In this document: positions 1-15,050 of the stretch, one piece after another
How the letters are laid out: each line of letters starts with the position of its first letter
Numbering within the stretch: the first letter of the stretch is position 1
DNA from: a virus
Taxonomy: Duplodnaviria > Heunggongvirae > Uroviricota > Caudoviricetes
Virus record (IMG/VR): IMGVR_UViG_2713896729_000010
Location: 1-15,050 of that record
Length of the DNA: 15,050 nt
Direction: 5' to 3' (one strand)
Program-made: the position numbers and the translations under genes
The notes under the pieces: model-generated
The model's database searches: none
The model's input: the letters and a program-made list of their open reading frames with translations, nothing else
What the model was told of the DNA's origin: nothing

Positions 1-482
1 TTTTTATTTCTCTTTCAGGTGAATAGATCGTTTTTACTATTTTACCCCGCACGAATCATCGTTAAAATCAGATTATAGTGTAGGAATAACTCGTTTTTTA
101 CGAGCAATTAAAGGATTTGCGCCATCAGCGGTGAGATGAGTTTTTGACGGCTGTAAGCGCTAACGGGTGACCCTAAGCCCTGATAATCATAGCTTAAGGT
201 GAGGATTTCTGAGGGATTAATTAGGAAAAGTAATAATTAATTTCTTGTCAGTCGGCGTTATTTGTTAGGACAATATTTCAAAAATAATCCAGCTTGTCGT
301 CAATAATTGCGATAAAGAGATAAATTAAAGTTAAATAATTAAATCATTAAAAAATTACGCCACAAAAATGCGAGGCGTCTTCAGGATTAGAATCGATAAA
401 ACAGAATGGGTTAAAGAGAGCGATATAATAGCGGCGGGTGCTTGAGGCTATCTGTCTCAGGCATTAGCTGAACGGCAGATAG

Positions 483-537
483 AGAAAAGCCCCGAGTGAT
501 ATTTTACTATCAACCCGAGGCCCCCTATATGCTGAAC
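483..537 (-). ncRNA. sokC: Sok-type antisense RNA (approximate placement), antitoxin of the hok/sok type I toxin-antitoxin locus
   Basis: Placed only by analogy with the known hok/sok organisation, where the antisense RNA overlaps the mok start (here 529). No promoter or terminator was verified in the sequence, and the coordinates rest on remembered E. coli K-12 positions. Confidence 0.3.
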
Positions 538-738
538 ACATGTAGAGTGCCTCTTACTGACCGTAAGGTCAAGGAGAAGAGAGCAATGAAGCAGCATAAG
601 GCGATGATTGTCGCCCTGATCGTCATCTGTATCACCGCCGTAGTGGCGGTGCTGGTAACGAGAAAAGACCTCTGTGAGGTTCACATCCGAACTGGCCAGA
701 CGGAGGTTGCTGTTTTCACGGCTTACGAATCCGAGTAA
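529..738 (+). CDS. mokC: MokC, overlapping in-frame leader ORF that regulates hokC translation
   Basis: ATG at 529 in frame with hokC and sharing its stop; translation MLNTCRVPLTDRKVKEKRAMKQHK... The track ORF 496..738 is the same frame from an upstream GTG. Confidence 0.65.
   Translation: MLNTCRVPLTDRKVKEKRAMKQHKAMIVALIVICITAVVAVLVTRKDLCEVHIRTGQTEVAVFTAYESE
586..738 (+). CDS. hokC: Hok/Gef family small membrane toxin (50 aa)
   Basis: Translation MKQHKAMIVALIVICITAVVAVLVTRKDLCEVHIRTGQTEVAVFTAYESE matches the Hok/Gef family as I recall it: single transmembrane helix followed by the conserved RKDLCEV..RTG..EVAVF..YE motif. Confidence 0.9.
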   Translation: MKQHKAMIVALIVICITAVVAVLVTRKDLCEVHIRTGQTEVAVFTAYESE

Positions 739-818
739 GAGCAACGGCGGGGAGTGATCCCATAAGCGCTAACTTAAGGGTTGTGGTATTACGCCTGATA
801 TGATTTAACGTGCCGATG

Positions 819-828
819 NNNNNNNNNN
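819..828. other. N10 run, assembly gap or contig join
   Basis: Ten consecutive N. Flanking sequences (hok locus versus phage gpW) are not collinear in any genome I know. Confidence 0.9.
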
Positions 829-1839
<1,011 letters not shown>

Positions 1840-1915
1840 AACCCTTGCTGCGTCTGGAATGTCGTTTTCCATGCTTTTGATGACCGTTCATCACCCTTCC
1901 AGTTTTTCGCGGTTT

Positions 1916-1970
1916 TGTGTATTGCAATGTGTATTGCAAATTGGCGATCGGGATGGGTGTGTATTGCAAA
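1916..1970 (+). repeat. Three direct copies of GTGTATTGCAA, candidate integrase arm-type binding sites
   Basis: tgtgtattgcaa (1916-1927), tgtgtattgcaaa (1928-1940), gtgtgtattgcaaa (1957-1970), between the core and the int start. The same motif recurs near attR. Confidence 0.6.
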
Positions 1971-1987
1971 TCTCTTGAGGGCTTTTA

Positions 1988-3229
1988 ATGGCTATTGAAA
2001 ACAAACTCAGTGACAAACTGTTAAAGAGTCTTGTCGGAAAACGGCAGGACAAACAAAAAACAATAGCGGATGGGCGCGGGTTGTCTGTGCGTGTAAGCAT
2101 GGTTGGGGGGATCAGCTTTGTTTTTTACTATCGTCTTGGTGGCAGGGAATCCCCTCCGGTATGGCTTACACTTGGTCGCTATCCTGACATGTCTCTTGCA
2201 ACGGCCAGGCGCATGCGTGATCAGTGCCGTGAATGGCTGGCTGAAAATCTGGACCCCCGCAGGCAAATAAAACTTGCTGCCGAAAAAACTATGCAACCAG
2301 TGACCGTAAGGGATGCGCTGTTTTACTGGTACGACAATCACGCCACAACAGCCAGAAAAGAGCATGAATATTTAATAAAACGATTTGAAAAGCATATCTT
2401 CCCCTATATCGGTGATATGGCTATAGAACAGTGCAAATTACACACATGGCTTACCGTCTTTGACAGGATCAAAAAAAATGCGCCTGTTATGTCTGGTGCA
2501 ATTTTTCTTGATATCAAACAGGCGTTGCGTTTTTGTCGCGTCAGGCAATACATCGCGTGCGATCCCTTTGGAGATATTAACGTAAGTTATGTCGGGCGCT
2601 CATCCGGTATAAGGGATCGCGTTCTTAATATCAATGAAACCGCTGATGTATGGTCTTATGCTTACGGTAATAATTTGCTAACTCTGTCATCAATATATAA
2701 CCGAAGAATAATGGTTATCTGCCTGGTGTTTGGTTGCCGACAGCAGGAGGCGAGGCTATCCACCTGGGACGAATGGGATTTAAAAAACTGGGTATGGACA
2801 GTCCCAAAAGAGCACAGCAAAAACAAGGAGGCTATAGTAAGGCCTGTTCCTGACGGAATAAAACAATGGATCGTTAATCTTTACGCAGAAACAAAAAATC
2901 GCGGTTATGTTGTCGGTTGTGCTTTGCAAAGGGCGACAATAACAGGGGCTGCAAACAGAATATGCAGGCGTCTTGGTCATGATACTAATGGCTTGTGGTG
3001 CATACATGATTTCAGGCGCACATTTTCCACTACGCTTAATGATATGGGGGCGGATCCTTATATTGTCGAACTTCTTTTAGGTCATAAAGTGAAAGGGGTT
3101 GCTGGTGTTTACAATAAAAGCAGGCATATAAAGAAAAAACTTGAGGTGCTTAATATGTGGGTTAATTACCTTAATACGATAGCAGGATTTAACAACAACG
3201 TTATCGAGCTTAATAAAGAGGTGGTGTGA
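1988..3229 (+). CDS. int: Tyrosine site-specific integrase, P4-like family
   Basis: 413 aa. N-terminal arm-binding-like region (GRGLSVRVSMVGGISFVFYYRLGG...YPDMSLATARRMRDQ). C-terminal catalytic motifs CRQQEA (R), HDFRRTF (HxxR) and GVYNKS (Y nucleophile). SD gaggg 6-7 nt upstream of the ATG. Confidence 0.95.
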   Translation: MAIENKLSDKLLKSLVGKRQDKQKTIADGRGLSVRVSMVGGISFVFYYRLGGRESPPVWLTLGRYPDMSLATARRMRDQCREWLAENLDPRRQIKLAAEKTMQPVTVRDALFYWYDNHATTARKEHEYLIKRFEKHIFPYIGDMAIEQCKLHTWLTVFDRIKKNAPVMSGAIFLDIKQALRFCRVRQYIACDPFGDINVSYVGRSSGIRDRVLNINETADVWSYAYGNNLLTLSSIYNRRIMVICLVFGCRQQEARLSTWDEWDLKNWVWTVPKEHSKNKEAIVRPVPDGIKQWIVNLYAETKNRGYVVGCALQRATITGAANRICRRLGHDTNGLWCIHDFRRTFSTTLNDMGADPYIVELLLGHKVKGVAGVYNKSRHIKKKLEVLNMWVNYLNTIAGFNNNVIELNKEVV

Positions 3230-3230
3230 T

Positions 3231-3488
3231 ATGGCAATTTATTCTCTTGTTGATGAAAACGATTTGCGCACAATGAAGGACATTGATCGGTTCATTCGTG
3301 AAAAAGAGTGCATAGCACTTACCACGCTGGCAAACTCAACACGCTGGAAAATGGAGCAGGCAGGTAAATTCCCGCGACGTATCAAGATCGGTGAACGTGC
3401 TGCAGGGTATCGACTTTCAGAGGTTCAGGCATGGATCCGTGGTGAGTGGCATCCTGGATGGAAACCTGGAAAAACAAAACAGCAATAA
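3231..3488 (+). CDS. alpA: AlpA-family HTH regulator / excisionase-like protein
   Basis: 85 aa. Translation ...IALTTLANSTRWKMEQAGKFPRRIKIGERAAGYRLSEVQAWIRGEW resembles the AlpA/Vis helix-turn-helix. Start is 1 nt after the int stop, so likely translationally coupled. Confidence 0.85.
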   Translation: MAIYSLVDENDLRTMKDIDRFIREKECIALTTLANSTRWKMEQAGKFPRRIKIGERAAGYRLSEVQAWIRGEWHPGWKPGKTKQQ

Positions 3489-3501
3489 CCAGTAAATAAT
3501 G

Positions 3502-3524
3502 CCCCTCATCACGAGGGGTTTTTT
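3502..3524 (+). terminator. Rho-independent terminator after alpA
   Basis: CCCCTC-ATCAC-GAGGGG stem-loop followed by TTTTTT. Confidence 0.75.
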
Positions 3525-3544
3525 GTCTATAAGGTAAAAACGCG

Positions 3545-4123
3545 ATGAATAAAAATATTGCCGTGACGGGCAAGGGGTACGCTCGTCCAGTGAAAAAATT
3601 CTGCGATATTCGTGATCTCGTCGTTCTGCGCTTTGATAGTGTGAACGTTCGTGTGGTGTATCTGAACGGCGATCCGTGGTTTGTTGCAAAAGATGTTTGT
3701 GCTGCGCTGGAACTAACCAATTCGCGTACGGCGTTGCAGATGCTTGATGATGATGAAAAGGGAGTAAATTTAACTTACACCCCAGGAGGAAATCAGAATA
3801 TGAGAATTATCTCTGAGTCAGGTTTCTACAAACTAATAGCCCGCAGCCGCAAAGCAACGACGCCTGGCACATTTGCTCATCGTTTCAGTAACTGGGTATT
3901 CAGAAATGTGATACCAGGTATCAGAAAAACGGGGACTTATGGTATCCCGTGGGGTGCATTACAGGATTTTTCCCGCCGTAAAGAGCAATATCAAATAAGT
4001 GCCAGCGAGAAGGGGAGGGAGCTACAGGCATGTAAGCGCAAAAAGCGTGAGCTGGAGGAAGAAGAAAAAACGCTGATACGTGAATATCAGCCTGAGTTTT
4101 ACTTTGGTAACCGCATTCAGTGA
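3545..4123 (+). CDS. Bro-N domain protein (antirepressor-like), with a charged coiled-coil-like C-terminus
   Basis: 192 aa. N-terminal region VRVVYLNGDPWFVAKDVCAALELTNSRTALQMLDDDEKGV...RIISESGFYKLIARSRK fits the Bro-N fold as I recall it. C-terminus is K/E-rich (KRKKRELEEEEKTL). Confidence 0.75.
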   Translation: MNKNIAVTGKGYARPVKKFCDIRDLVVLRFDSVNVRVVYLNGDPWFVAKDVCAALELTNSRTALQMLDDDEKGVNLTYTPGGNQNMRIISESGFYKLIARSRKATTPGTFAHRFSNWVFRNVIPGIRKTGTYGIPWGALQDFSRRKEQYQISASEKGRELQACKRKKRELEEEEKTLIREYQPEFYFGNRIQ

Positions 4124-4132
4124 CAAAACAAA

Positions 4133-4153
4133 GGCGACCGCAAAAGGGTCGCC
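4133..4153 (-). terminator. Rho-independent terminator for the leftward regulator operon
   Basis: GGCGACC-gcaaaag-GGTCGCC hairpin. The T-run (tttgttttgtca) lies on the minus-strand 3' side, so it terminates leftward transcription; there is no T-run on the plus side. Confidence 0.65.
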
Positions 4154-4219
4154 AGTGGGAACAAGGGAAAACAAAAGCATCACCAACAATGCCACATTTG
4201 CGGCTGGTGGGCAATGTGA

Positions 4220-4399
4220 TCAGTCAGATTTGGTTCGTTCCAAGGTTTGCAACGAGAGCTTTTTCCTGTGCTCTTTAAGGAATTTCTCAAGAGCAAACGA
4301 ACAAGGTGCGAATCTTTCTGATTCATGTTCATGCGCTATATTTTTGCGTCGTCTCTTACGAGTTGGTGATGGTGTTTTGGTTGATTCTGTGTCGCTCAT
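4220..4399 (-). CDS. Small basic hypothetical protein (59 aa), second gene of the leftward operon
   Basis: Not in the supplied track (below its size cut-off). Hand translation MSDTESTKTPSPTRKRRRKNIAHEHESERFAPCSFALEKFLKEHRKKLSLQTLERTKSD. SD AGGA 7 nt upstream of the ATG. Lies between the 101-aa gene and the minus-strand terminator. Confidence 0.4.
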   Translation of the reverse strand: MSDTESTKTPSPTRKRRRKNIAHEHESERFAPCSFALEKFLKEHRKKLSLQTLERTKSD

Positions 4400-4456
4400 G
4401 GTGCTGTCCTGTAAAGCAATGCGCCTGCGTTCCTCAAACTATGGCGCTGATATTGG

Positions 4457-4762
4457 CTATTCATGCTCTTTGACCTTGCGTCGCTGGAGTTCTTCACGCG
4501 CGACGGTGACGAGTTGCCCGATCTCCTCGGCTGCTTTGATGCCGATTTGTTCGACCTTAGCCAGGGCATCCAGTGACGACACAAGGGGATTTTCTCCGCT
4601 GCCTTCTGCTTGGCGGCGGGCTATTTCTCCGCGCATGGCGGTTACGATAAATCCGGCATTGCTTTCACCGTCCAGCTTAACGGATTCCATCCCTTGCATA
4701 ACATCTAGTGGGACTCTGACAGTTGTCAGTTGTGATTTTGCGTTTTTGTTAGCCGTTGCCAT
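4457..4762 (-). CDS. Hypothetical protein (101 aa), candidate island repressor/regulator by position
   Basis: Strong SD AGGAG 8 nt upstream of the ATG. Divergent from the rightward early operon across a palindromic operator. No family recognised from sequence. Confidence 0.7.
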   Translation of the reverse strand: MATANKNAKSQLTTVRVPLDVMQGMESVKLDGESNAGFIVTAMRGEIARRQAEGSGENPLVSSLDALAKVEQIGIKAAEEIGQLVTVAREELQRRKVKEHE

Positions 4763-4823
4763 TTCTGAAACTCCTAATCATCGGTGTGTTTCAGTATACA
4801 CAAAAAAAGAAATACAAAAAGCC

Positions 4824-4861
4824 TTGACGTGTGTTTCATGCGCTCATAACATGAAACACAC
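4824..4861 (+). promoter_or_regulatory. Candidate sigma-70 promoter of the rightward early operon overlapped by a perfect 12-bp inverted-repeat operator
   Basis: -35 TTGACG (4824-4829), 17-bp spacer, -10 TAACAT (4847-4852). Inverted repeat GTGTGTTTCATG (4829-4840) / CATGAAACACAC (4850-4861) with 9-bp spacer. Extra half-site GTGTGTTTCAG at 4784-4794. Confidence 0.55.
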
Positions 4862-4952
4862 CGAAAGGATTGTTGAAATACAAAGAGCAACGCCCCGCAG
4901 TGCTGGGAACACATACGGGGCGTCTAACCAACAACGTAAACTAGGAGCCGTT

Positions 4953-5150
4953 ATGGTTGCTGTAAATCATATACCACACCTTGTACACACACAAACGGCC
5001 TTTGTGTGGCGTTTTCTGGCACTGAGTGCCGGAGAATCTCAAATCATCCACGTAACCGCCTGGACGGAACGCGAAGCGCGTAGCCGTTGCCCGTCCGGTT
5101 GTGTTGCTGTATTCGCTGCAAAAATCCGCCAGGGAGTGAGTCATGCTTAA
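4953..5150 (+). CDS. Hypothetical small protein (65 aa), first gene of the rightward early operon
   Basis: SD AGGAG (4944-4948) 4 nt before the ATG. Translation MVAVNHIPHLVHTQTAFVWRFLALSAGESQIIHVTAWTEREARSRCPSGCVAVFAAKIRQGVSHA. This is the C-terminal part of the track's 4080..5150 ORF, which I reject as a whole. Confidence 0.55.
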   Translation: MVAVNHIPHLVHTQTAFVWRFLALSAGESQIIHVTAWTEREARSRCPSGCVAVFAAKIRQGVSHA

Positions 5151-5328
5151 AACCTTCCGTGTATTTGCCCGAGCTGTTAACCCAATAGGCCACACAATTG
5201 GTATCGCTCAGAATGTGAAGGCTGTTAATGTTCAGACGGCTATTGCTGCGGTGAGAAGCGAATCATCAGAATATGGCTTATCACAAGTCATTATTTCAGC
5301 AGTGTATGAATTAAAAGAGGTGCATTAA
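5143..5328 (+). CDS. Hypothetical small protein (61 aa)
   Basis: Start overlaps the upstream stop (ATGCTTAA); SD gggag upstream. Confidence 0.5.
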   Translation: MLKTFRVFARAVNPIGHTIGIAQNVKAVNVQTAIAAVRSESSEYGLSQVIISAVYELKEVH

Positions 5329-5519
5329 TGCAGGAAATTACATTACACGAAGCCGCTGAACGTGCGCACCAGACAGAAATTATTTGCCGCCTTCTTGAGG
5401 TATACCCGAACAAAATTACAGATGCTGATATATCCGCACTGGCGAGCCTACTGGCGCGTCTTTCGGGAAGTGTCGCTAGTTTTTTGATTGAGGAAGAAAG
5501 TAAGCTGGTGGGGGATTAA
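5328..5519 (+). CDS. Hypothetical small acidic protein (63 aa)
   Basis: TAATG stop/start overlap with the upstream gene; SD aagagg upstream. Confidence 0.55.
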   Translation: MQEITLHEAAERAHQTEIICRLLEVYPNKITDADISALASLLARLSGSVASFLIEEESKLVGD

Positions 5520-5741
5520 ATGAATACAGAACGGGAAGTCTTTTTTAAATTGTTAGCATGTGCAGAAAGTTCATTAACTTTAAATAATTCAGCAAAAGCA
5601 ATATTAAATATGTGGCTTGATTGCATAAATGACAATGAAGATGCAAATATTGCTTATGGCCTGTTGTCACTTATTGATGAATCAGCAGAAAAACTCAATG
5701 ACGCAATAAATAGTGCCCTGCTATCAAATAAGTCGAGTTAA
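5520..5741 (+). CDS. Hypothetical small acidic protein (73 aa) in an AT-rich segment
   Basis: TAAATG overlap with the upstream gene. Local base composition is visibly AT-richer than its neighbours, suggesting a recently acquired cargo gene. Confidence 0.5.
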   Translation: MNTEREVFFKLLACAESSLTLNNSAKAILNMWLDCINDNEDANIAYGLLSLIDESAEKLNDAINSALLSNKSS

Positions 5742-5758
5742 GTCGAGGAATAAATAAT

Positions 5759-6058
5759 ATGGAAATGAAAAATTCTGGCTTTATTGCCAGCGGCCCCGCT
5801 CGACCTGAATTTATGAACGGCGATATTTACCGCGATAAATACGGCGGCACGGTAACGATTAAAGGCGTGGCAGAACGGCGCATCACTTACCGCCGTGAGG
5901 GGTATAGCTATGACTGCGTGATGCCTGTTTATCAGTTCCGGCGTGATTTTCCCCTGGTATATGCCGCACCCCGCAGTAAGCCCATCAGCAGGGAAAAAGC
6001 GTGGGGAAATATCCAGAAAATGAAAACCATGATTAACGGATTCAGAGGTAAAAAATGA
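5759..6058 (+). CDS. Hypothetical protein (99 aa), translationally coupled to the helicase gene
   Basis: SD gagga upstream. Stop overlaps the helicase start (ATGA at 6055-6058). Confidence 0.6.
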   Translation: MEMKNSGFIASGPARPEFMNGDIYRDKYGGTVTIKGVAERRITYRREGYSYDCVMPVYQFRRDFPLVYAAPRSKPISREKAWGNIQKMKTMINGFRGKK

Positions 6059-7809
6059 AACTGGCACCGAACGTAAAACAGCAGTCACGCGGCATAAAAC
6101 ACAAAGGAACAGAAGTCATTATTTTTGCGGGTAGTGATGCCTGGGCACACGCGAAACAATGGCAGGAACATGATGCGCGTATGGCCGGAGATAATGAGCC
6201 TCCTGTGTGGCTTGGGGAGCAGCAGCTATCCGAACTGGATAATCTGCAAATTGTGCCGGAAGGCCGAAAATCAGCACGCATATACAGGGCCGGATATCTT
6301 GCGCCTGTAATGATAAAGGCGATTGGTCAGAAGCTGGCGGCAGCAGGCGTACAGGATGCAAATTTTTATCCTGAGGGTATGCACGGCCAGGAGGTGCAGA
6401 ACTGGCGCGAATATCTGGCCCGTGAACGCCAGAATCTTTCTGATGGTCTGGTCATTGAGCTTCCGGTAAAGCAAAAGGCGCAACTTTCGCAGATGGCGGA
6501 CAGTGAGCGCGCGCAGTTGCTTGCCGATCGCTTTGATGGCGTTTGCGTACATCCTGAAAGTGAAATCGTTCACGTATGGCGCGGCGGGGTATGGTGTCCG
6601 GTCAGCACAATGGAACTTAGCCGCGAAATGGTGGCGATCTATTCAGAGCACAGGGCCACTTTCAGCAAGCGCGTAATCAATAACGCCGTGGAAGCGTTAA
6701 AAGTTATTGCCGAACCAATGGGCGAGCCGTCTGGCGATTTGCTGCCGTTCGCCAATGGTGCGCTTGACCTGAAAACGGGGGAATTTTCCCCGCACACGCC
6801 GGAGAACTGGATCACCACGCACAACGGCATTGAGTACACGCCACCAGCACCAGGGGAGAACATCCGCGATAACGCGCCAAACTTTCATAAATGGCTTGAG
6901 CACGCAGCCGGAAAAGACCCGCGCAAGATGATGCGTATATGTGCCGCGCTGTACATGATTATGGCGAACCGGTACGACTGGCAGATGTTTATTGAGGCCA
7001 CCGGAGACGGCGGGAGCGGTAAAAGTACATTCACACACATAGCCAGCCTTCTGGCAGGGAAACAGAACACGGTAAGCGCTGAAATGACATCGCTTGATGA
7101 TGCTGGTGGACGTGCGCAGGTTGTCGGGAGTCGTCTTATCGTCCTGGCTGACCAGCCGAAATATACAGGCGAAGGAACGGGCATCAAGAAAATCACAGGC
7201 GGCGACCCCGTGGAAATTAACCCGAAATATGAAAAGCGTTTCACGGCGGTAATCAGGGCGGTGGTGCTGGCGACCAACAACAACCCGATGATATTCACCG
7301 AACGGGCCGGAGGTGTGGCACGTCGTCGCGTGATTTTCCGTTTCGACAATATCGTCAGTGAGGCCGAAAAAGACAGGGAGCTACCGGAAAAGATTGCGGC
7401 TGAAATCCCCGTTATTATCCGCCGATTGCTGGCGAACTTTACCGACCCTGAGAAGGCACGGGCTTTACTACTGGAACAGCGTGACGGTGATGAAGCACTG
7501 GCAATAAAGCAACAGACGGATCCGGTTATTGAGTTTTGCCAGTTCCTGAATTTTCTGGAGGAAGCGCGCGGCCTGATGATGGGTGGCGGTGGTGATTCAG
7601 TGAAGTACACGACCAGGAACAGCCTTTACCGCGTCTATCTGGCGTTTATGGCATACGCGGGCAGGAGCAAACCGCTAAACGTGGCTGAGTTCAGCAAGGC
7701 CATGAAGCCAGCGGCGAAAGTTTACGGGCATGAATATATTACGCGAAAAGTTAAGGGAGTAACGCAGACCAACGCAATTACAACAGACGATTGCGACGCG
7801 TTTTTATAA
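6055..7809 (+). CDS. Replication initiator / SF3 helicase (D5_N-like domain plus NTPase, resembling the P4 alpha C-terminal half); no clear primase motif seen in the N-terminus
   Basis: 584 aa. Walker A GDGGSGKST and Walker B-like LIVLADQ. The conserved region before the NTPase resembles the D5_N / P4-family C-terminal domain. Iteron origin immediately downstream. Confidence 0.88.
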   Translation: MKLAPNVKQQSRGIKHKGTEVIIFAGSDAWAHAKQWQEHDARMAGDNEPPVWLGEQQLSELDNLQIVPEGRKSARIYRAGYLAPVMIKAIGQKLAAAGVQDANFYPEGMHGQEVQNWREYLARERQNLSDGLVIELPVKQKAQLSQMADSERAQLLADRFDGVCVHPESEIVHVWRGGVWCPVSTMELSREMVAIYSEHRATFSKRVINNAVEALKVIAEPMGEPSGDLLPFANGALDLKTGEFSPHTPENWITTHNGIEYTPPAPGENIRDNAPNFHKWLEHAAGKDPRKMMRICAALYMIMANRYDWQMFIEATGDGGSGKSTFTHIASLLAGKQNTVSAEMTSLDDAGGRAQVVGSRLIVLADQPKYTGEGTGIKKITGGDPVEINPKYEKRFTAVIRAVVLATNNNPMIFTERAGGVARRRVIFRFDNIVSEAEKDRELPEKIAAEIPVIIRRLLANFTDPEKARALLLEQRDGDEALAIKQQTDPVIEFCQFLNFLEEARGLMMGGGGDSVKYTTRNSLYRVYLAFMAYAGRSKPLNVAEFSKAMKPAAKVYGHEYITRKVKGVTQTNAITTDDCDAFL

Positions 7810-7824
7810 TTTTTTGTAAAAGCC

Positions 7825-8042
7825 ATCTACCCCATCTACCTGAACAAAATAAACGCATATTATTCAACATGATAAGTGGGTATAGGGCTAGGTAGAAGGC
7901 TAATAAAAGCTCTCTACCTCTTCTACCTGATTTTATCAGTTTCAGGTAGCAGGGTAGACGGCAGGTAGAGGAGTCAAAAAGCTATCTACCCGCTGAAAGC
8001 CGCGCCATTACTGACATGATGAGCATTCGGGTAGATGGGTAG
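7825..8042. repeat. Iteron-type replication origin: at least 11 copies of GGTAG / CTACC arranged as inverted clusters
   Basis: ccatctaccccatctacc (7823-7840); ggtag at 7891, 7945, 7953, 7964, 8030, 8038; ctacc at 7914, 7923, 7986. Terminal clusters are mutual reverse complements (catctacc / ggtagatg). Lies directly after the initiator gene. Confidence 0.8.
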
Positions 8043-8157
8043 AGGGGGGGAGGCACAACTAAAAACTTTTTAAACGAGGGGGGGGTGAAAATAAATGCGC
8101 ATACATAAAAATCACTTAATAAACATGCCAGCCGAAAACATGAATCAGGGGCGACAA

Positions 8158-8409
8158 ATGACCAAAATTCGCAGAGACAGAACACAGGCAAAATATAAAG
8201 CGTTAGACATGACAGAGCTTTCCTTAAAGGTGGCAATCAAAGCGATAGACCACCACACACGGGCAGGATACGCGAAGGAACATCCCGACCTGATAAGCGC
8301 ATTCATGACCACAGCAGCGGCAAACTTTGCCACGCTGACAGAACGGGAGATTGCCGAAGCGGAACAGGTGACAACCATCAATGTTAAAACCGGAGAGCAG
8401 ACAGCATGA
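8158..8409 (+). CDS. Hypothetical protein (84 aa; start uncertain, alternative starts at 8139 or 8095)
   Basis: SD agggg 6 nt before ATG 8158. Stop overlaps the SSB-like gene start (ATGA at 8406). Confidence 0.55.
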   Translation: MTKIRRDRTQAKYKALDMTELSLKVAIKAIDHHTRAGYAKEHPDLISAFMTTAAANFATLTEREIAEAEQVTTINVKTGEQTA

Positions 8410-8855
8410 CAGCACAGATAGCGGCTTACGGGCGGCTGGTGGCTGACCCGCAGTTAAAGACCACCAGCAAAGGGACACAAATGGCGATGGCGAGTATGGC
8501 GGTTCCCCTGCCGTGCAGCCAGGCAGATGACGGAACGGCGACGATGTGGTTATCCGTCCTGGCGTTTGGCAGACAGGCCGACGCACTGGCAAAACACCAC
8601 AAAGGCGAACTGGTGAGCGTGGCGGGTAACATGCAGGTAAGCCAGTGGACAGGCCAGAACGGCGAAACGCGGCGGGGCTGGCAGGTTATCGCAGACAGCG
8701 TAATCAGTGCGCGAACGGCGCGACCGGGCGGCAAAAAAGGCCAACAGGGGCAGGCTACTGACGAACTGAACAGAGCAAAACAACAGGCAGATCAGCAAGG
8801 AAGCCAGCCACCAGTGGGAGATAATGAGCAATGGGGAGATGATATCCCGTTTTAA
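8406..8855 (+). CDS. ssb: Single-stranded DNA-binding protein homologue with SSB-like acidic C-terminal tip
   Basis: 149 aa. OB-fold-like N-terminus (GRLVADPQLKTTSKGTQMAMASMAV...WLSVLAFGRQADALAKHHKGELVSVAGNMQVSQW), Gly/Gln-rich linker, and C-terminus ...WGDDIPF resembling the DDDIPF tip of bacterial SSB. Confidence 0.8.
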   Translation: MTAQIAAYGRLVADPQLKTTSKGTQMAMASMAVPLPCSQADDGTATMWLSVLAFGRQADALAKHHKGELVSVAGNMQVSQWTGQNGETRRGWQVIADSVISARTARPGGKKGQQGQATDELNRAKQQADQQGSQPPVGDNEQWGDDIPF

Positions 8856-8873
8856 ATATTGCCAATAAAAAAG

Positions 8874-8897
8874 GCCGGAAAAAATAAATTTTCCGGC
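8874..8897 (+). other. Perfect hairpin between the replication and capsid modules
   Basis: GCCGGAAAA-aataaa-TTTTCCGGC, 9-bp stem. No T-run after it, so not a canonical terminator on the plus strand. Confidence 0.5.
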
Positions 8898-9071
8898 ATG
8901 CTACATAAATCCCGACCAAAGGGAGTGAAGATATTAACACTAATTGTCCGCACTGAAGTTGTCACCCCAAAACTTTATACAACATTGCACTCGGTTGCAT
9001 GTGTTCGCATGACAAATATCGGTGGTAGCATATATCCACAATTATTTTTAATGAATGCAAAGAGGATGCGT

Positions 9072-10112
9072 ATGGTTGATTTATATTCGCCTACTCAGCT
9101 TGTACAGGTGGTTAATGCTGTAGATGTACAAAAACAACTAAATGCGTTGTTTACCAGTTTGTTTTTTACTCGCTCGGTAATGTTTGAATCGCGCGATATT
9201 ATTCTTGATACAATCGACGATCCAAATATCCCAATTGCAGCGTTTTGTTCTCCTATGGTGGGTAGTAAAGTTTCACGTGACGAAGGGTACGAATCAAAAA
9301 CAATTCGTCCAGGCTATATGAAGCCGAAAAGCAGCATTGATCCAAATAAGTTAGCTGTGCGCCCTGCTGGTGTATCACCTGAGCAATACAATGCTTTTGG
9401 GGCACGTAATATTAAAGTTAAACAGGCGATTGTAAATCAGGCTAAAGCTATTCGTGCACGTATTGAATGGCTTGCTGTTCAGGCAATCACAACGGGGAAA
9501 AATATCATTGAGGGCGATGGTATTGAACGTTATGAGCTGGACTGGAATATAAAACCACAAAATATCATCACTCAGTCTGGCGGTACTGAGTGGTCAGGTA
9601 AGGATAAAGAAACTTTTGATCCAAATGATGATATTGAGAGCTACGCAGAATTTAGTGAGGGCGTCACTAATATCATCATTATGGGTGGTAATGTATGGAA
9701 GAAATACCGTTCATTCAGAGCGATAAAAGAGGCTTTGGATACCCGTCGTGGTTCTAATTCCGAACTGGAAACGGCCCTTAAAGACCTTGGTGATTCGGTG
9801 AGTTTTAAAGGGTATATGGGCGATGTTGCGATTGTTGTTTACAGCGGGCGTTATACCGACGAGGACGGAACAGAAAAACATTTCCTTGATCCTGATTTGA
9901 TGGTGCTTGGCAATACGGCTCTTCAGGGGATTGTCGCCTATGGCGGTATTCAGGATCCGGAGCTAATCCGAATGGGGCTGACTAAAGCCGAACTTGCACC
10001 GAAAAACTATATTGTGCCTGGTGATCCGGCTATTGAATATGTGCAGACACATTCAGCACCACAGCCAATACCGGCCCGCATCAATCGTTTTGTTACCGTT
10101 CGCATTGGCTAA
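9072..10112 (+). CDS. Major capsid protein, homologue of lambda gpE
   Basis: 346 aa from ATG 9072 (SD aagagg 8 nt upstream). Collinear similarity to lambda E as I recall it: N-terminus MVDLYSPTQL versus MSMYTTAQL; NIITQSGGTEWSGKDKETFDPNDDIESYA versus NITQSGGTEWSKRDKSTYDPTDDIEAYA; LDTRRGSNSELETALKDLG...GDVAIVVYSG nearly identical. The track ORF starts at an upstream TTG (8859), which I reject. Confidence 0.9.
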   Translation: MVDLYSPTQLVQVVNAVDVQKQLNALFTSLFFTRSVMFESRDIILDTIDDPNIPIAAFCSPMVGSKVSRDEGYESKTIRPGYMKPKSSIDPNKLAVRPAGVSPEQYNAFGARNIKVKQAIVNQAKAIRARIEWLAVQAITTGKNIIEGDGIERYELDWNIKPQNIITQSGGTEWSGKDKETFDPNDDIESYAEFSEGVTNIIIMGGNVWKKYRSFRAIKEALDTRRGSNSELETALKDLGDSVSFKGYMGDVAIVVYSGRYTDEDGTEKHFLDPDLMVLGNTALQGIVAYGGIQDPELIRMGLTKAELAPKNYIVPGDPAIEYVQTHSAPQPIPARINRFVTVRIG

Positions 10113-10121
10113 GGGGGAGCA

Positions 10122-10463
10122 ATGGCTACTCATTACACTGAACTCATGGCTGGCACTGAAGCACTGGTGACTACGCTGGGGATATTTTCAGCTAATAAAG
10201 GGGTAATTCCTGCATTTACGCCACTGATGCAGGAAGATGCAACAGGTGCACTGGTGGTATGGGATGGTTCGAGCGTAGGTAAAGCGGTTTATGTTTCCGC
10301 TGTACAAATCGACACAGCGAAAAAAACACAGGCACAGGTTTATAAGACAGGTGTTTTAAATGTTGATGCTCTGAACTGGCCTGAGTCTGTAAAAGAACTG
10401 TCGGCAAAGGTTGCCGCGTTTGTTGGCTCAGGTATTTCTGTTCAGCCGCTGGCTCGTGTGTAA
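10122..10463 (+). CDS. Head decoration protein, homologue of lambda gpD
   Basis: 113 aa, SD gggggag. Similar to lambda D as I recall it: TPLM..D....LVVWDG...YK.G......WPE......AF.G..IS. Confidence 0.85.
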   Translation: MATHYTELMAGTEALVTTLGIFSANKGVIPAFTPLMQEDATGALVVWDGSSVGKAVYVSAVQIDTAKKTQAQVYKTGVLNVDALNWPESVKELSAKVAAFVGSGISVQPLARV

Positions 10464-10474
10464 AGGGGGATACA

Positions 10475-10858
10475 ATGCAGAATCATTACAATGACCTTAA
10501 GCCAATTGCCGAAATGATGTATCCGGATCCAGCAGTAGAGGAATTAAAGGCTATTGCTGACAAAATGCGTTTAAGTGAACGCCTTGTTGATATGAATCAG
10601 GTGATGGAACTTACTACCCTTAGCCGTCGCACATTGCTAAACCTTGAGGCTAGTGGAGAGTTCCCGGAGCGTGTGCAGGTTACGGAAGGGCGTAAGGCCT
10701 GGTATTTAAGTGAAGTGATCGACTGGATAAACAATATTCCTCGATCTTCTGAATATTGCCGCGTACCTGTCCCAAAAAAGCCAGATGCGGCGCTATGCCT
10801 CAAGATTGAGCGTGTACGTCGCAATGCACGGGATGGTCGCTATAAGTTGATTGGTTGA
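10475..10858 (+). CDS. Second AlpA-family HTH protein (127 aa, with an N-terminal extension), immediately upstream of cos
   Basis: SD aaggggga. Translation ...MELTTLSRRTLLNLEASGEFPERVQVTEGRKAWYLSEVIDWIN is an AlpA-like helix-turn-helix. Confidence 0.7.
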   Translation: MQNHYNDLKPIAEMMYPDPAVEELKAIADKMRLSERLVDMNQVMELTTLSRRTLLNLEASGEFPERVQVTEGRKAWYLSEVIDWINNIPRSSEYCRVPVPKKPDAALCLKIERVRRNARDGRYKLIG

Positions 10859-10884
10859 TGAAATTAGGGCCCGTTCTGGCTGGC

Positions 10885-10948
10885 GGGTCCTTTCCGGCGA
10901 TCCGGTAGGCTACGGGGCGGCGACCTCGCGGGTTTTCGCTATTTATGA
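10885..10948 (+). other. cos site: lambda-type cosN (12-nt cohesive-end sequence GGGCGGCGACCT at 10915-10926) with lambda-like flanks
   Basis: gggtcctttccggcgatccggtaggctacg|GGGCGGCGACCT|cgcgggttttcgctatttatga agrees almost base for base with the lambda cos junction as I recall it. Sequence downstream (10949-11059), where cosB would be, is unlike lambda. Confidence 0.85.
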
Positions 10949-11059
10949 GCCTTTTTCGGGTGCTGGTGGTGGTTTTGTTGTTCGCTCTATCTCTATGAAT
11001 AAAAAGGAAAAGATAAAGCCAATACACCAACCTGAAACATTACTTAAGTGGGGATATTG

Positions 11060-11530
11060 ATGAAATCGCACCTGATGAACAAAAAAAACATGGCGCAAAG
11101 CTGCCGTGTAAGTGCGACAGCGTTCGACAAGTGGGGAGTGACTCCCGTTGAACGTAAAGGCCGCGAGGCGTTTTATGATGTTGCCAGCGTAATAGACAAT
11201 CGGGTTAGCAATGCAATTAACCAGATTACAGACGACAAAGGCGAGATTGATGATGATGAACTCCTACGAGTCAGGATCAGATTGCTGACAGCACAGGCAG
11301 AGGCGCAGGAGCTTAAAAACGAGCGCGAACGCGGCGACGTTATTGATACAGCGTTTTGTATATACGTGCTTTCAAAATTGGCGAGTCAGATTTCTTCAAT
11401 CATGGACAGCCTGCCGCTTGCCATGACAAGGAAGTTTCCCGACATGAAGCCGTCTATGCTGGATGGACTGAAAAAGAAGTTATCAGAGCCTGTAACGCAT
11501 GCGCAAAACTTGACGAAAACATACCGCTGA
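11060..11530 (+). CDS. Terminase small subunit, homologue of lambda Nu1; the C-terminal Nu1-like segment continues in the -1 frame to 11601
   Basis: N-terminal ..NKKNMAQSCRVSATAFDKWGV aligns with the Nu1 N-terminus (NKKQLADIFGASIRTIQNWQEQG). Central block LTAQAEAQELKNERERGDVIDTAFCIYVLSKLASQISSIMDSLPLAMTRKFP is nearly collinear with Nu1 (LTRAQADAQELKNARDSAEVVETAFCTFVLSRIAGEIASILDGLPLSVQRRFP). Start could also be 11075 or 11090. Confidence 0.85.
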   Translation: MKSHLMNKKNMAQSCRVSATAFDKWGVTPVERKGREAFYDVASVIDNRVSNAINQITDDKGEIDDDELLRVRIRLLTAQAEAQELKNERERGDVIDTAFCIYVLSKLASQISSIMDSLPLAMTRKFPDMKPSMLDGLKKKLSEPVTHAQNLTKTYR

Positions 11531-11612
11531 TGCTGTCCGATTATCTGATGGAAACTGCCGGAAACGTACCGGATAAGTTGCAGCCGAATAAAGATAAGTA
11601 ACGTAGTACGCT

Positions 11613-11894
11613 ATGACTGAATCCGAAATACTGCGATTAATCCGCCGTGCTTGTGGAATCAGCAAGCAGCATGACGAACAGGCCACGCAGCCGGACAGCG
11701 TGACCGCAGATAATTATGTGCGTGTAGTGGCTGAGGTGATGCGCCGTGACGGTATTGAGCTTAACGGCGTGGATATGCGCAACATACGAACAAGAGTCCT
11801 TGAGTTGCTGGCATATCGTCGCCGTTCTCAACAACGGAGGGAGAGCGCGAAAAATACTTACCAGTGGAAGAAGCCGGAACGATTGCGGCGGTAA
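11613..11894 (+). CDS. Hypothetical basic protein (93 aa) downstream of the small terminase gene
   Basis: ORF with Arg-rich C-terminus (RRRSQQRRESAKNTYQWKKPERLRR). Weak SD and no recognisable family. Confidence 0.45.
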   Translation: MTESEILRLIRRACGISKQHDEQATQPDSVTADNYVRVVAEVMRRDGIELNGVDMRNIRTRVLELLAYRRRSQQRRESAKNTYQWKKPERLRR

Positions 11895-12146
11895 CTTGCT
11901 GATATTCCCGATAACGCAAAATTGCGCTGGCTGACTTGTTGCATTGCAAAAAGTTAAGCAGGAAGGCACGGCCTGTAAGATGGGATGCAGTAAGTAGTTC
12001 AAGGCTACCTTGTGCTGGCACGCACAGTTAAGCCGTCGGTGCTGGATATCCCCCACTGGGGGAAAAGCTGGCTACATCCCTCACATCTGAGGACTGATAA
12101 CGCGACATTGCGCTGGCTGGCAAAGTGCAAAATTGCACGATGGCCT

Positions 12147-12290
12147 AACCCATTGATTATTTCGAAAACCTGCAATGCAGGAAATCGGGGAAGTAAGCCT
12201 AAGCTATTGATTGTTTCGAAAACCCCCATTGGGGGATGTCGGGAAAGTAAGACTAACCCATTGATTCTTCCACAATCCTCAATTTGAGGA
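12147..12290. repeat. Tandem ~54-bp repeat, 2.7 copies, each with a different 13-bp palindrome
   Basis: Conserved unit (C/G)C(C/T)ATTGATT.TT.C.A.AA.CC followed by cctgcaAtgcagg (12169-12181), cccccaTTggggg (12223-12235) and cctcaaTttgagg (12277-12289). Confidence 0.75.
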
Positions 12291-12608
12291 GGCCGGAACG
12301 TCTACATAGCTGCATCGCCGTAATGATGATTCAGCCCACCAGCCAAATCAGCACAGCAACGACAGAATAGCCCGACACAGAAAAACCACGAATATGGGGT
12401 TTTTGTTATGACATGGTCATGATGACCACTCATACAAAACAGGTAAAGCCCACCAGCCTGATTAAAGGTTAACCGGAAAAAAGCCAGGTATCCAATCTCG
12501 ATATGGGGATCCCTATATCGACATTAACGCCCACTAAAACTGTGCATATATGCATAGAAAAAGCATCCACCAGCTTTATGACGGATGCCGCTCATCTTAT
12601 AAATAATC

Positions 12609-12630
12609 GTGTATTGCAGTGTGTATTGCG
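12609..12630 (+). repeat. Two further direct copies of the GTGTATTGC(A/G) arm-type motif near attR
   Basis: gtgtattgca (12609-12618) and gtgtattgcg (12621-12630), about 75-95 bp from the right core, same orientation as the three copies near attL. Confidence 0.6.
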
Positions 12631-12703
12631 ACTCCTTTAAACGATAGGTCTGAGCATTCGTAATGTACTGTTTTTAAATTTTATTTTTTCCTGTCTTTTC
12701 ATA

Positions 12704-12716
12704 AAGGCGATGTATG
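12704..12716. repeat. attR core (right copy of the 13-bp direct repeat)
   Basis: AAGGCGATGTATG; phage-identical sequence continues rightward (gtatgccgccaccattgag). Confidence 0.8.
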
Positions 12717-12933
12717 CCGCCACCATTGAGAGTGAGCTGGATACGCAGTCAGCGATGGATTTTATTCTGGGCGCGAACAGTCAGGAGCAGCGGGAAAGGC
12801 TGACCGGCTGGATTGGTGAAATTGCCGCGTATTACGCCGCAGCGCCGGTCCGGCTGGGAGGCGCAAAAGTACCGCACCTGATGCCGGGGGACTCACTGAA
12901 CCTGCAGACGGCTCAGGACACGGATAACGGCTA
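12704..12933 (+). CDS. B: lambda-type portal protein B, continuation after the island (truncated at the N10 gap)
   Basis: In frame from the core: KAMYAATIESELDTQSAMDFILGANSQEQRERLTGWIGEIAAYYAAAPVRLGGAKVPHLMPGDSLNLQTAQDTDNG, matching the region of lambda B that follows ...QSAIVKA. Confidence 0.9.
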
Positions 12934-12943
12934 NNNNNNNNNN
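12934..12943. other. N10 run, assembly gap or contig join
   Basis: Ten N; flanks are portal gene versus a glutamate decarboxylase fragment. Confidence 0.9.
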
Positions 12944-13063
12944 ATCGGCCTGGAATTTATCCAGCGCATCGTGCAGCGGTTGTGGGAACTCATAGTTACC
13001 AGTGTAGGTCACGCCGAAAGTCGGCACCACGCCGATGGTGTTTTCGTCACAGGCTTCAATCAT
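12944..13063 (-). CDS. Internal 40-codon fragment of glutamate decarboxylase (GadA/GadB-like), isolated between two N10 runs
   Basis: Minus-strand translation [40 protein letters not shown] matches an internal segment of E. coli Gad as I recall it. Confidence 0.6.
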
Positions 13064-13073
13064 NNNNNNNNNN
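13064..13073. other. N10 run, assembly gap or contig join
   Basis: Ten N. Confidence 0.9.
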
Positions 13074-13673
<600 letters not shown>

Positions 13674-13683
13674 NNNNNNNNNN
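13674..13683. other. N10 run, assembly gap or contig join
   Basis: Ten N; the J frame does not continue across it. Confidence 0.9.
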
Positions 13684-15050
13684 ATAACGCGTCCGCAGTG
13701 GCACAGAACACGGCAGCCGCAAAGAAGTCAGCCAGCGATGCCGGCACATCTGCCCGTGAGGCGGCAACCCATGCAACCGATGCTGCAGGCTCAGCACGTG
13801 CCGCCAGCACGTCAGCCGGACAGGCTGCATCATCTGCTCAGTCAGCATCTTCCAGCGCAGGAACGGCATCAACAAAGGCCACTGAAGCATTAAAAAGTGC
13901 TGCCGCTGCAGAGTCCTCAAAAAGCGCGGCAGCCACCAGTGCCGGTGCGGCGAAAACGTCAGAAACGAATGCCGCAGCATCACAACTATCAGCAGCCACT
14001 TCTGCATCCACCGCGACCACGAAGGCGTCAGAAGCTGCCACCTCAGCCCGGGATGCGGCGGCCTCAAAAGAGGCAGCGAAATCATCAGAAACGAACGCAT
14101 CATCAAGTGCCAGTAGTGCAGCTTCCTCGGCAACGGCGGCAGGAAATTCCGCGAAGGCCGCAAAAACGTCTGAGACGAATGCGGATAACAGCGCACAGGC
14201 GGCAGCAGACTCACAAACTGCATCGGCAAACTCCGCGACAGCCGCCAAAAAATCAGAAACCAACGCGAAAAATAGCGAGGCAGCAGCAAAGAGCAGCGAA
14301 ACAAACGCTAAAGCCAGCGAAACTAATGCTAAATCCAGTGAAACAAACGCGGCGAAATCTGCGGCGGACGCACTTAATTATCGCAACCATGCTCAGGGTA
14401 TTGTTGGTGCTAACATCGGTTTGGGATCATCACCGCGCAATTGTCCTGATATTTCCGGTGATCCATCCGGTTATATTGGCTTTATGCGCATTTTTGCTTC
14501 CGCAACAGGTTTTCCGTCTATTGCATCAGGCGAAGGTAATCTTACTGGTTTTATTAGTCAGGTAGATGGAACACCAGCGTATACAGGTGTATTTCAGGGA
14601 TGGACTACTCGCTCGCTTTATACCTATCGCTGGAGTCCGACAATAGGCCCGCAATGGACACGCCACGCTCGCAAAAATGAAGTGGACCGTCTTGACCAAT
14701 TGAATAGCGAAACATGGTTATATAACCATGATAAATCCATGCGCCTGGGTTTAACCGCCTCATCATGGGGTTGTTACAGCGATACACAAAAAAAATGGAT
14801 ACCGCTTGATGTTTCTCATGGTGGCACTGGCGCGGCAACTATTGATGGTGCCAGAACTAATCTTGGATTAGGCAGGGATAACAGCCCTCAGCTTAATAGT
14901 CTATTTCTCGATAGGACTAGTGATTCTACTGGCGCATACACTACTGGCGGGATGCTCCATACGAGACTGTTAGCAAATGATAACACTGTGCGCCTTGCCG
15001 CTGATATGTATGTTCAGACTTTTCCAAATGAGCAAGGTCGATTAACAATA
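13684..15050 (+). CDS. stf: Side tail fiber protein (lambda Stf family), partial at both ends, with an Ala/Ser-rich SETNA repeat region
   Basis: Open frame (codons from 13686) with no stop to the window end. Repeats AKTSETNAAAS, AKSSETNASSS, AKTSETNADNS, KKSETNAKNS, KSSETNAKASETNAKSSETNAAKS, then a globular region (..NYRNHAQGIVGANIGLGSSPRNCPDISGDPSGYIGF...). Not in the track because it lacks a start and stop inside the window. Confidence 0.85.

Follow-up and report, generated by a model that had tools for sequence, protein, structure and literature searches.

Three small genes of an accessory mosaic slot in an EcCICFT073-type satellite island lodged within a prophage

The DNA analyzed here, referred to below as the window, is a stretch of 15,050 nucleotides (nt) covering positions 1 to 15,050 of the IMG/VR virus record IMGVR_UViG_2713896729_000010 (Caudoviricetes). 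It carries three consecutive small open reading frames (ORFs), A, B and C, within an element that, judging from its gene content and boundaries, is a phage-inducible chromosomal island (PICI) of the EcCICFT073 type, present here as a helper-embedded satellite (HES), and thus an element of a known kind. Our analysis shows that these ORFs are real small genes that evolve independently and under purifying selection, and that they are separate modules of an accessory mosaic slot located between an icd-like gene and a gene for a DUF4222 protein resembling the regulator RgdR. The reading we favor, and consider probable, is that all three encode non-enzymatic accessory binding proteins of the early satellite unit.

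All three ORFs lie on the plus strand. ORF A (5143-5328) encodes a basic protein of 61 amino acids (aa) with an isoelectric point (pI) of 9.40 and a predicted beta-beta-alpha-beta fold, whereas the products of ORF B (5328-5519; 63 aa, pI 4.66) and ORF C (5520-5741; 73 aa, pI 4.21) are acidic and are each predicted to form three helices. The first-pass annotation, made from the sequence alone, had described three ORFs of 61, 63 and 73 codons, each with a Shine-Dalgarno sequence, the last two acidic and the last one lying in an AT-rich patch, and this description proved accurate, with exact coordinates. Purine runs resembling Shine-Dalgarno sequences precede A (AGGGAG), B (GAGGTG) and C (GGGGGA), and ORF C has a GC content of 0.32, with 0.23 at third codon positions, while the island as a whole has 0.475. 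Among 222-nt windows across the island, those with the lowest GC start at positions 5536-5564, and only 0.46% of such windows are as low in GC as ORF C (z about -2.7). The annotation had also stated that the three ORFs overlap by 1-4 nt, which is loosely right: A and B share a single nucleotide (TAATG), but B and C merely abut (TAAATG), and ATGCTTAA is not a junction among the three, being the start of ORF A, which shares 8 nt with the end of the icd-like gene before it, stop codon included. Farther downstream, a gap of 17 nt separates ORF C from the DUF4222 gene, which in turn overlaps the following primase gene by 4 nt. A, B and C form the middle of a head-to-tail string of six genes (icd-like, A, B, C, DUF4222/RgdR-like and P4-type primase), which is probably one transcription unit with translational coupling.

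Because ORFs of this size are common in six-frame scans (the window has 104 that are 40 aa or longer), length alone does not prove that A, B and C are genes. Each of them, however, matches a PHROG family over essentially the whole profile, namely, phrog_3672 for ORF A (E 9.1e-46), phrog_1478 for ORF B (E 2.5e-34) and phrog_2196 for ORF C (E 1e-28), the function of all three families being unknown. RefSeq annotates all three as proteins, and the exact sequence of each is found on at least 1000 public contigs, always as 'hypothetical protein'. Comparison of alleles from 120-odd related loci yielded ratios of nonsynonymous to synonymous substitution (dN/dS) of 0.26 (A), 0.20 (B) and 0.21 (C), with few variable sites for A (13) and C (9); in the family of ORF C, alleles of the 77-aa class give 0.20. 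The icd-like and DUF4222 genes on either side have similar ratios (0.30-0.36). Word-indexed searches with the ORFs returned close Escherichia and Shigella relatives only, including 42 homologues of B from these genera with 73-98% identity, and a homologue of A in Escherichia albertii is full-length and ungapped at 49% identity. Together with the predicted fold of A described below (predicted local distance difference test score, pLDDT, of 91), the PHROG matches, the RefSeq annotation and the dN/dS values of 0.20-0.26 identify A, B and C as real genes. The alternative, that they are untranslated chance ORFs or annotation artefacts, could draw on the frequency of such lengths in six-frame scans, but the protein-level conservation of all three and the confident fold of A make it hardly credible.

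To describe the slot between the icd-like and DUF4222 genes, we anchored a survey on DUF4222, covering 80 IMG/VR loci together with loci from E. coli, Shigella and E. albertii. Slot genes were called with a preference for ATG starts and with coverage limits, a few calls still fusing neighbors (F12, F13, F18 and F21). The slot occurs in 63 distinct architectures with one to five small genes each, whose products are helical and for the most part acidic. The A family is present in 24 of these, the B family in at least 24, and in more once variants of 55% identity are counted, whereas the family of ORF C (F2) is found in 48 and always directly upstream of DUF4222. In one E. albertii locus (L127, 3276-3461), an A-like gene is the sole gene of the slot and retains the 8-nt overlap with icd, which suggests that the link of A is with icd and not with B or C. 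Homologues of B with 59% identity are found in temperate phages of Klebsiella, in the early-left operon between the repressor and xis-int, and no homologues of A or C are detectable in these B-bearing phages. Occasional frameshifted copies of slot genes also exist. Thus, the existence of A alone in E. albertii, of a B-like gene with an F2 gene but without A in EcCICFT073 (see below), and of B-like genes alone in Klebsiella phages shows that the three genes are modules that come and go independently.

The assignment of ORF C required more than pairwise similarity, its identity to other F2 alleles being only 15-34%. ORF C clusters with F2 by BLASTP; against a hidden Markov model (HMM) built from the other alleles only, it scores 36.2 bits (E 5.5e-10), compared with 11.9 bits for the best of 2000 composition-matched shuffles; and all 13 aligned alleles of the family independently match phrog_2196. 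On these three lines of evidence, ORF C is a divergent allele of phrog_2196 (F2), the usual neighbor of DUF4222. The same divergence explains why a HMMER search with the single ORF C sequence against 1.84 billion representatives came up empty, returning only ORF C itself and three long repetitive proteins, which look like low-complexity artefacts; the alignment of the family is also too divergent for a pattern scan. A possible common origin of B and C was considered and rejected, as the two families are not supported as paralogues (hhalign probability 1.3%).

The AT-richness of ORF C is a trait of its family. All F2 alleles are AT-rich (GC 0.32-0.43, mean 0.37), compared with 0.55 for the icd-like genes and 0.49 for the DUF4222 genes of these loci, and ORF C stands at the extreme of this range, so that its low GC is not a sign of a new arrival. 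The first-pass annotation had read the AT-rich patch as recently acquired cargo; given that F2 alleles are AT-rich throughout and hold a fixed position, this is unsupported for C alone. We also weighed whether the patch matters at the DNA level, as a new foreign insertion, as a segment bound and silenced by H-NS, or as a regulatory RNA ahead of the replication genes. The patch is the lowest-GC stretch of the island, it contains a promoter-like site on the minus strand (5635-5607), and the low GC shared by all alleles could reflect a constraint on the DNA itself. However, the reading frame of ORF C is conserved, as its dN/dS shows, and its product belongs to a protein family detectable by profiles; the homologous position of the gene in relatives argues against a new insertion; and the patch contains neither iterons nor notable repeats, while Rfam finds no known RNA in the A-B-C region. 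We therefore regard a DNA-level role as very unlikely. A replication origin within the patch was likewise rejected, the iterons being located downstream of the primase gene.

Recent acquisition is, by contrast, the part of that interpretation that stands when applied to the A-B-C block as a whole. Across islands that carry A and B with the 73-aa allele of C, the three genes are 95-100% identical, as is DUF4222 (95-100%), and identity peaks at 100% for B and C. Compared with the window, the same cassette-bearing islands (L086, L113, L117 and others) have far more divergent backbones, with about 55% identity in the integrase, 65% in AlpA, 45-50% in the icd-like gene and 80% in the primase, and they lack the Bro gene. 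The near-identity of the cassette set against these divergent backbones indicates a recent exchange of the A-B-C block that involved two or more satellite lineages. Overall, the earlier observation was essentially correct, and its interpretation partly right and partly wrong.

Two characterized islands have comparable slots. EcCICFT073 has, in the same order as the window, an icd-like gene, small ORFs, a DUF4222 gene (c1493, the RgdR homologue) and a primase gene. Its slot encodes four proteins, all small and acidic (pI 4.4-4.9), the first being a 55% homologue of ORF B and the last a member of phrog_2196 like ORF C, but only about 20% identical to it. Unlike the window, EcCICFT073 has no ORF A and carries two other acidic families in the middle of the slot; it also adjoins roxA in the chromosome, whereas the island of the window lies within a prophage gene. 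The genetic studies of this island tested other EcCICFT073 genes and none of the slot ORFs (PMC6092414, PMC6739421). The second island is represented by Sp7 of the O157:H7 strain Sakai and CP-933C of EDL933 (O-island 51, the capsid-forming PICI EcCIEDL933), in which ECs_1578-ECs_1580 stand in the same order before the RgdR gene (ECs_1581). ECs_1578 is 97% identical to ORF A. The homologue of ORF B in the same element of O157:H7 strain 3384 is 78% identical, and ECs_1579 occupies that position in Sakai. ECs_1580 is a member of phrog_2196 but represents a different allele, with 80 aa and 33% identity to ORF C. EcCIEDL933 differs from the island of the window in its integrase, its replicase (DUF927) and its packaging module, which comprises a full set of capsid genes. 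Of these four proteins, RgdR alone has an assigned function, activation of type III secretion having been mapped to ecs1581 and not to ECs_1578-ECs_1580, and it is one of the two DUF4222 members, along with C1493, characterized in that study (PMC3378721).

A more distant parallel is provided by satellite P4, in which the left operon (kil, eta, epsilon and orf151) consists, like A-B-C, of small genes upstream of a P4-family (alpha) primase. The genes of this operon are expressed at the start of the satellite lytic programme, and epsilon binds a helper protein. The resemblance would be one of functional analogy only: the P4 early proteins have no homology to A, B or C detectable by tblastn against 50,697 phage records, the window uses AlpA regulation, and Rfam detects no RNA of the P4 CI type (C4/isrK) anywhere in the window.

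Searches for known families gave no functional lead. Scans of A, B and C against Pfam, NCBIfam and PADLOC produced sub-threshold noise only (for example, Effector_1 at E 0.03), and PADLOC had no match at E values up to 1 for the three proteins and six neighboring ones. Searches of PDB sequences, with single sequences as well as with family profiles, were equally without a match for A, B and C. The first-pass annotation had recognized no family by eye, and this was borne out for named families in all four resources, in which no catalytic or DNA-binding motif was found either. The PDB sequence and profile searches revealed no homology to characterized inhibitors (DNA mimics of the Ocr/ArdA type, Gp2, p56, Dmd and others), although a dedicated anti-defence library was not searched. 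Against the 50,697 phage records, tblastn found zero matches for A and C, and matches for B in the Klebsiella temperate phages only. In a contig collection, the B family was not found and DUF4222 was found at two loci only, the small numbers being due to the collection holding one genome per species. The literature searched contained no functional test of these ORFs.

Structure prediction was informative mainly for ORF A. Its AlphaFold2 model, built from only six near-identical sequences, has a pLDDT of 91.3 and consists of strands at residues 3-12, 18-27 and 47-57 and a helix at 30-43, that is, a beta-beta-alpha-beta arrangement. Foldseek results agree on eL20/LX, but no match reached an E-value of 0.001 or lower, the best being 1.6e-3. 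The predicted similarity to eL20/LX, as to PurS, is one of fold only, with 10-25% sequence identity and no Pfam match; to our knowledge, eL20 is absent from bacteria, and the modeled resemblance to eL20/LX is neither a sign of family membership nor a clue to function. In a viral structure library, the same predicted fold is shared by dozens of uncharacterized phage proteins (template modeling scores up to 0.87), so that the fold is generic and gives no function. For B and C, a single-sequence model of the two fused into one chain (pLDDT 48, usable for secondary structure only) shows three helices each.

Taken together, these observations are best accommodated if A, B and C are accessory binding proteins. 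Upon induction of the helper, AlpA would switch on the unit, which would be silent in the lysogen. Production of A, B and C would then coincide with that of the replicase, at the onset of the satellite cycle, and the three would bind proteins of the host, the helper or the satellite itself, thereby conditioning the induced cell while remaining outside the core machinery of excision, replication and packaging. ORF B is probably host-directed, given that relatives of it also occupy the early-left operon of genuine temperate phages, and such phages work without a helper. ORF C may act with or on the adjacent basic DNA-binding RgdR-like protein, and A, as modeled, is a small basic beta-beta-alpha-beta protein without an assignable target. 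Several points weigh against this proposal. Homology points to no target for A, B or C, and the timing of transcription is taken by analogy from relatives. The predicted fold of A is a generic one common to many uncharacterized phage proteins, its Foldseek E-values are not significant, and B and C are cast as binding proteins by their size, charge, helicity and context, their fused model being of low confidence. Finally, the linkage of C to DUF4222 may be mere adjacency.

A replication role, in which the small proteins would be accessory factors of the downstream replicase that bind the origin, load the helicase or modulate the primase, would fit their position in the same tight string as the primase gene and upstream of the iteron origin. 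However, the A, B and C families accompany four unrelated replicases (the P4-type primase, DUF927, the RepA helicase and DUF5906), and many relatives retain the replicase but lack these families or have others in their place; in the Klebsiella phages, moreover, the relatives of B lie in the early-left operon, on the strand opposite to the phage primase and helicase. Because the same small genes go with four unrelated replicase types, we consider such a role highly improbable.

Anti-defence or anti-competitor activity, the role raised by the first-pass annotation, would be a narrower form of binding, in which the proteins block host immunity or a non-helper phage by stoichiometric binding, with both satellite and helper benefiting. 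In its favor, B and C are small, acidic and, by inference from relatives, expressed early; different small acidic proteins alternate in the mosaic slot, a pattern often seen at counter-defence loci; and the complete identity of the B-C core across divergent backbones suggests recent spread. On the other hand, the proteins resemble no solved or named protein in sequence or profile, and within allele classes, dN/dS values of about 0.2 show no trace of an arms race. The interference of EcCICFT073 with lambda maps to rppA, a gene whose deletion by itself brings lambda plaquing back almost to the full (PMC6739421); a major anti-lambda role is therefore unlikely for slot genes, the ORF C homologue among them. 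The anti-defence idea is thus compatible with everything observed but has no specific support, and we regard it as possible but rather unlikely.

For ORF C, the most specific idea that can be tested is a functional link to its neighbor, suggested by its constant position, its opposite charge and a report on RgdR co-factors. According to this idea, ORF C would be an acidic protein dedicated to the RgdR-like DUF4222 protein, as its partner, chaperone or antagonist, tuning the latter's DNA binding and hence host regulation (for example, the enterocyte effacement locus, LEE, or motility in enterohaemorrhagic E. coli, EHEC) or that of the satellite. The phrog_2196 member lies directly upstream of DUF4222 in 48 of the 63 architectures whatever the replicase type, the charges of the two proteins are complementary (pI 4.2 versus 10.1), and the allele classes of both genes largely travel together. 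RgdR, moreover, is small and basic and binds DNA non-specifically, and a need for a co-factor has been proposed (PMC3378721). Conversely, adjacency alone would explain the co-inheritance, 15 architectures have another family or nothing beside DUF4222, and one locus (L044) pairs a DUF4222 gene of 92% identity with a different class of the C family. Furthermore, plasmid-borne ecs1581 alone complements type III secretion without ECs1580 (PMC3378721). A dedicated partnership of this kind therefore seems doubtful. A broader and similarly doubtful proposition is that the entire slot is an unrecognized diversity hotspot of small inhibitors, with phrog_2196 members as partners or antagonists of RgdR-type proteins and B-type proteins directed at the host, possibly in counter-defence.

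On the evidence at hand, A, B and C belong to the uncharacterized accessory repertoire of such satellites and are commonplace satellite dark matter, not a system of a new kind; both the element and its prophage-embedded configuration have already been described. PICIs and HES are abundant in E. coli, where 1626 of the 5426 complete genomes searched contain DNA resembling positions 4900-6100 of the window. The first genes made upon satellite induction are the least understood part of such elements. Located beside RgdR, a virulence regulator of EHEC, the slot provides a short list of candidates for host takeover, counter-defence or regulator modulation, each gene being about 200 bp long and easily cloned. 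In EHEC, the RgdR-type regulator controls type III secretion and motility.

The string that contains A, B and C begins with the icd-like gene (4953-5150, plus strand; 65 aa, pI 9.7), which is annotated in RefSeq and matches NCBIfam NF033153 (E 1.2e-17). A longer GTG-initiated ORF of 356 aa on the same strand (4080-5150) was dismissed as an artefact, an open frame antisense to the ylcI-like gene, the real gene being the 65-aa ATG-initiated one. Downstream of ORF C, the string continues with the DUF4222/RgdR-like gene (5759-6058, plus strand; 99 aa, pI 10.1; Pfam PF13973, E 3.7e-23) and ends with the P4-family primase gene (6055-7809, plus strand; 584 aa; TIGR01613, E 1.9e-31; also in RefSeq). 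Upstream of the icd-like gene, the two arms of a perfect 13-bp inverted repeat, TCGGTGTGTTTCA / TGAAACACACCGA (4781-4793 / 4852-4864), flank a sigma-70-like promoter (TTGACG-17-TAACAT, 4824-4852). This plus-strand region (4781-4864), recognized by consensus matches only, is putatively regulatory, and the inverted repeat is a candidate operator of the operon that holds A, B and C. The region is situated between icd and the ylcI/ynfO-like gene (4457-4762, minus strand), which is divergent from icd.

Upstream of these genes, the island encodes an integrase (int, 1988-3229, plus strand; RefSeq annotation) and an AlpA regulator (alpA, 3231-3488, plus strand; PF05930, E 5e-14). In EcCICFT073, AlpA turns the island on upon helper induction, and int, alpA and pri are the only genes shown to be required (PMC6092414). 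By analogy with that island, labeling the string an early operon is a reasonable inference; the first-pass view of three real small genes in an operon switched on early during induction of a mobile element is thereby supported, the early timing being taken from EcCICFT073. Just downstream of the primase gene lies a cluster of direct and inverted repeats of the CCATCTACC type (iterons, 7817-8040), probably the satellite origin of replication, and its position matches that described for the PICI origin (PMC6092414). Farther downstream, RefSeq annotates a major capsid protein (about 9070-10112), a head decoration protein (10122-10463) and a 'small terminase', possibly Rpp-like (11048-11530). Only these three late-type genes are present, with no portal, protease or large terminase gene, which is the same partial set as in EcCICFT073 (c1499/c1500). 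The annotation of strain EC93 gives the order as integrase, AlpA-type helix-turn-helix (HTH) protein, BRO-N protein, divergent YlcI/YnfO-like protein, Icd-like protein and three hypothetical proteins, followed by DUF4222, P4-family primase, a hypothetical protein, single-stranded DNA-binding protein, major capsid protein, head decoration protein, an HTH protein and small terminase.

The island extends from about 1793 to 12703 (10.9 kb) between the att cores, which fits the PICI size of roughly 10-15 kb. It splits the portal gene (the cognate of lambda B) of a lambdoid prophage at 1792 / 12704 into halves located at 958-1792 and 12704-13460, is co-oriented with that gene, and is bounded by a 13-bp imperfect repeat at 1780-1792 and 12704-12716 with the att core AAGGCGAT(T/G)TATG. 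The prophage flanks carry terminase genes upstream and a protease gene downstream of the island. The genes int and alpA at one end, co-oriented with most other genes, a primase gene with iterons downstream, the size and an incomplete set of structural and lysis genes characterize the element as a PICI, and the portal gene split by a 13-bp att repeat places it among the HES, for which integration in the cognates of lambda A, B, C, E, V, T, H, L and J has been described (bioRxiv 10.1101/2022.07.18.500453). Near the ends of the island, GTGTATTGCA is found at 1917, 1929 and 1959 on the left and at 12609, with an adjacent near-copy, on the right (spans 1917-1968 and 12609-12629); these copies are probably arm-type sites of the integrase and possibly correspond to the 'doubled motif' reported for the attP arms of HES. 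Of 5426 complete E. coli genomes, 62 share this portal junction, while about 3200 match the portal half only, and a 701-nt region has matches in 281 of the 5426, with 130 of these extending over at least 80% of its length.

Three further observations concern the host prophage. The partial late-gene set of the island, with a capsid gene of its own, is notable because the island interrupts the portal gene of this prophage. The prophage flanks contain four runs of ten N, masked bases (819-828, 12934-12943, 13064-13073 and 13674-13683), owing to which the apparent frames of the C-terminal part of the portal gene and of the following genes are broken. Finally, in the flank upstream of the portal gene, Rfam identifies a sok antitoxin RNA (RF01794, 436-588, plus strand; 122 bits, E 5e-28), a strong match, which implies that the helper prophage carries a toxin-antitoxin locus of the hok/sok type.

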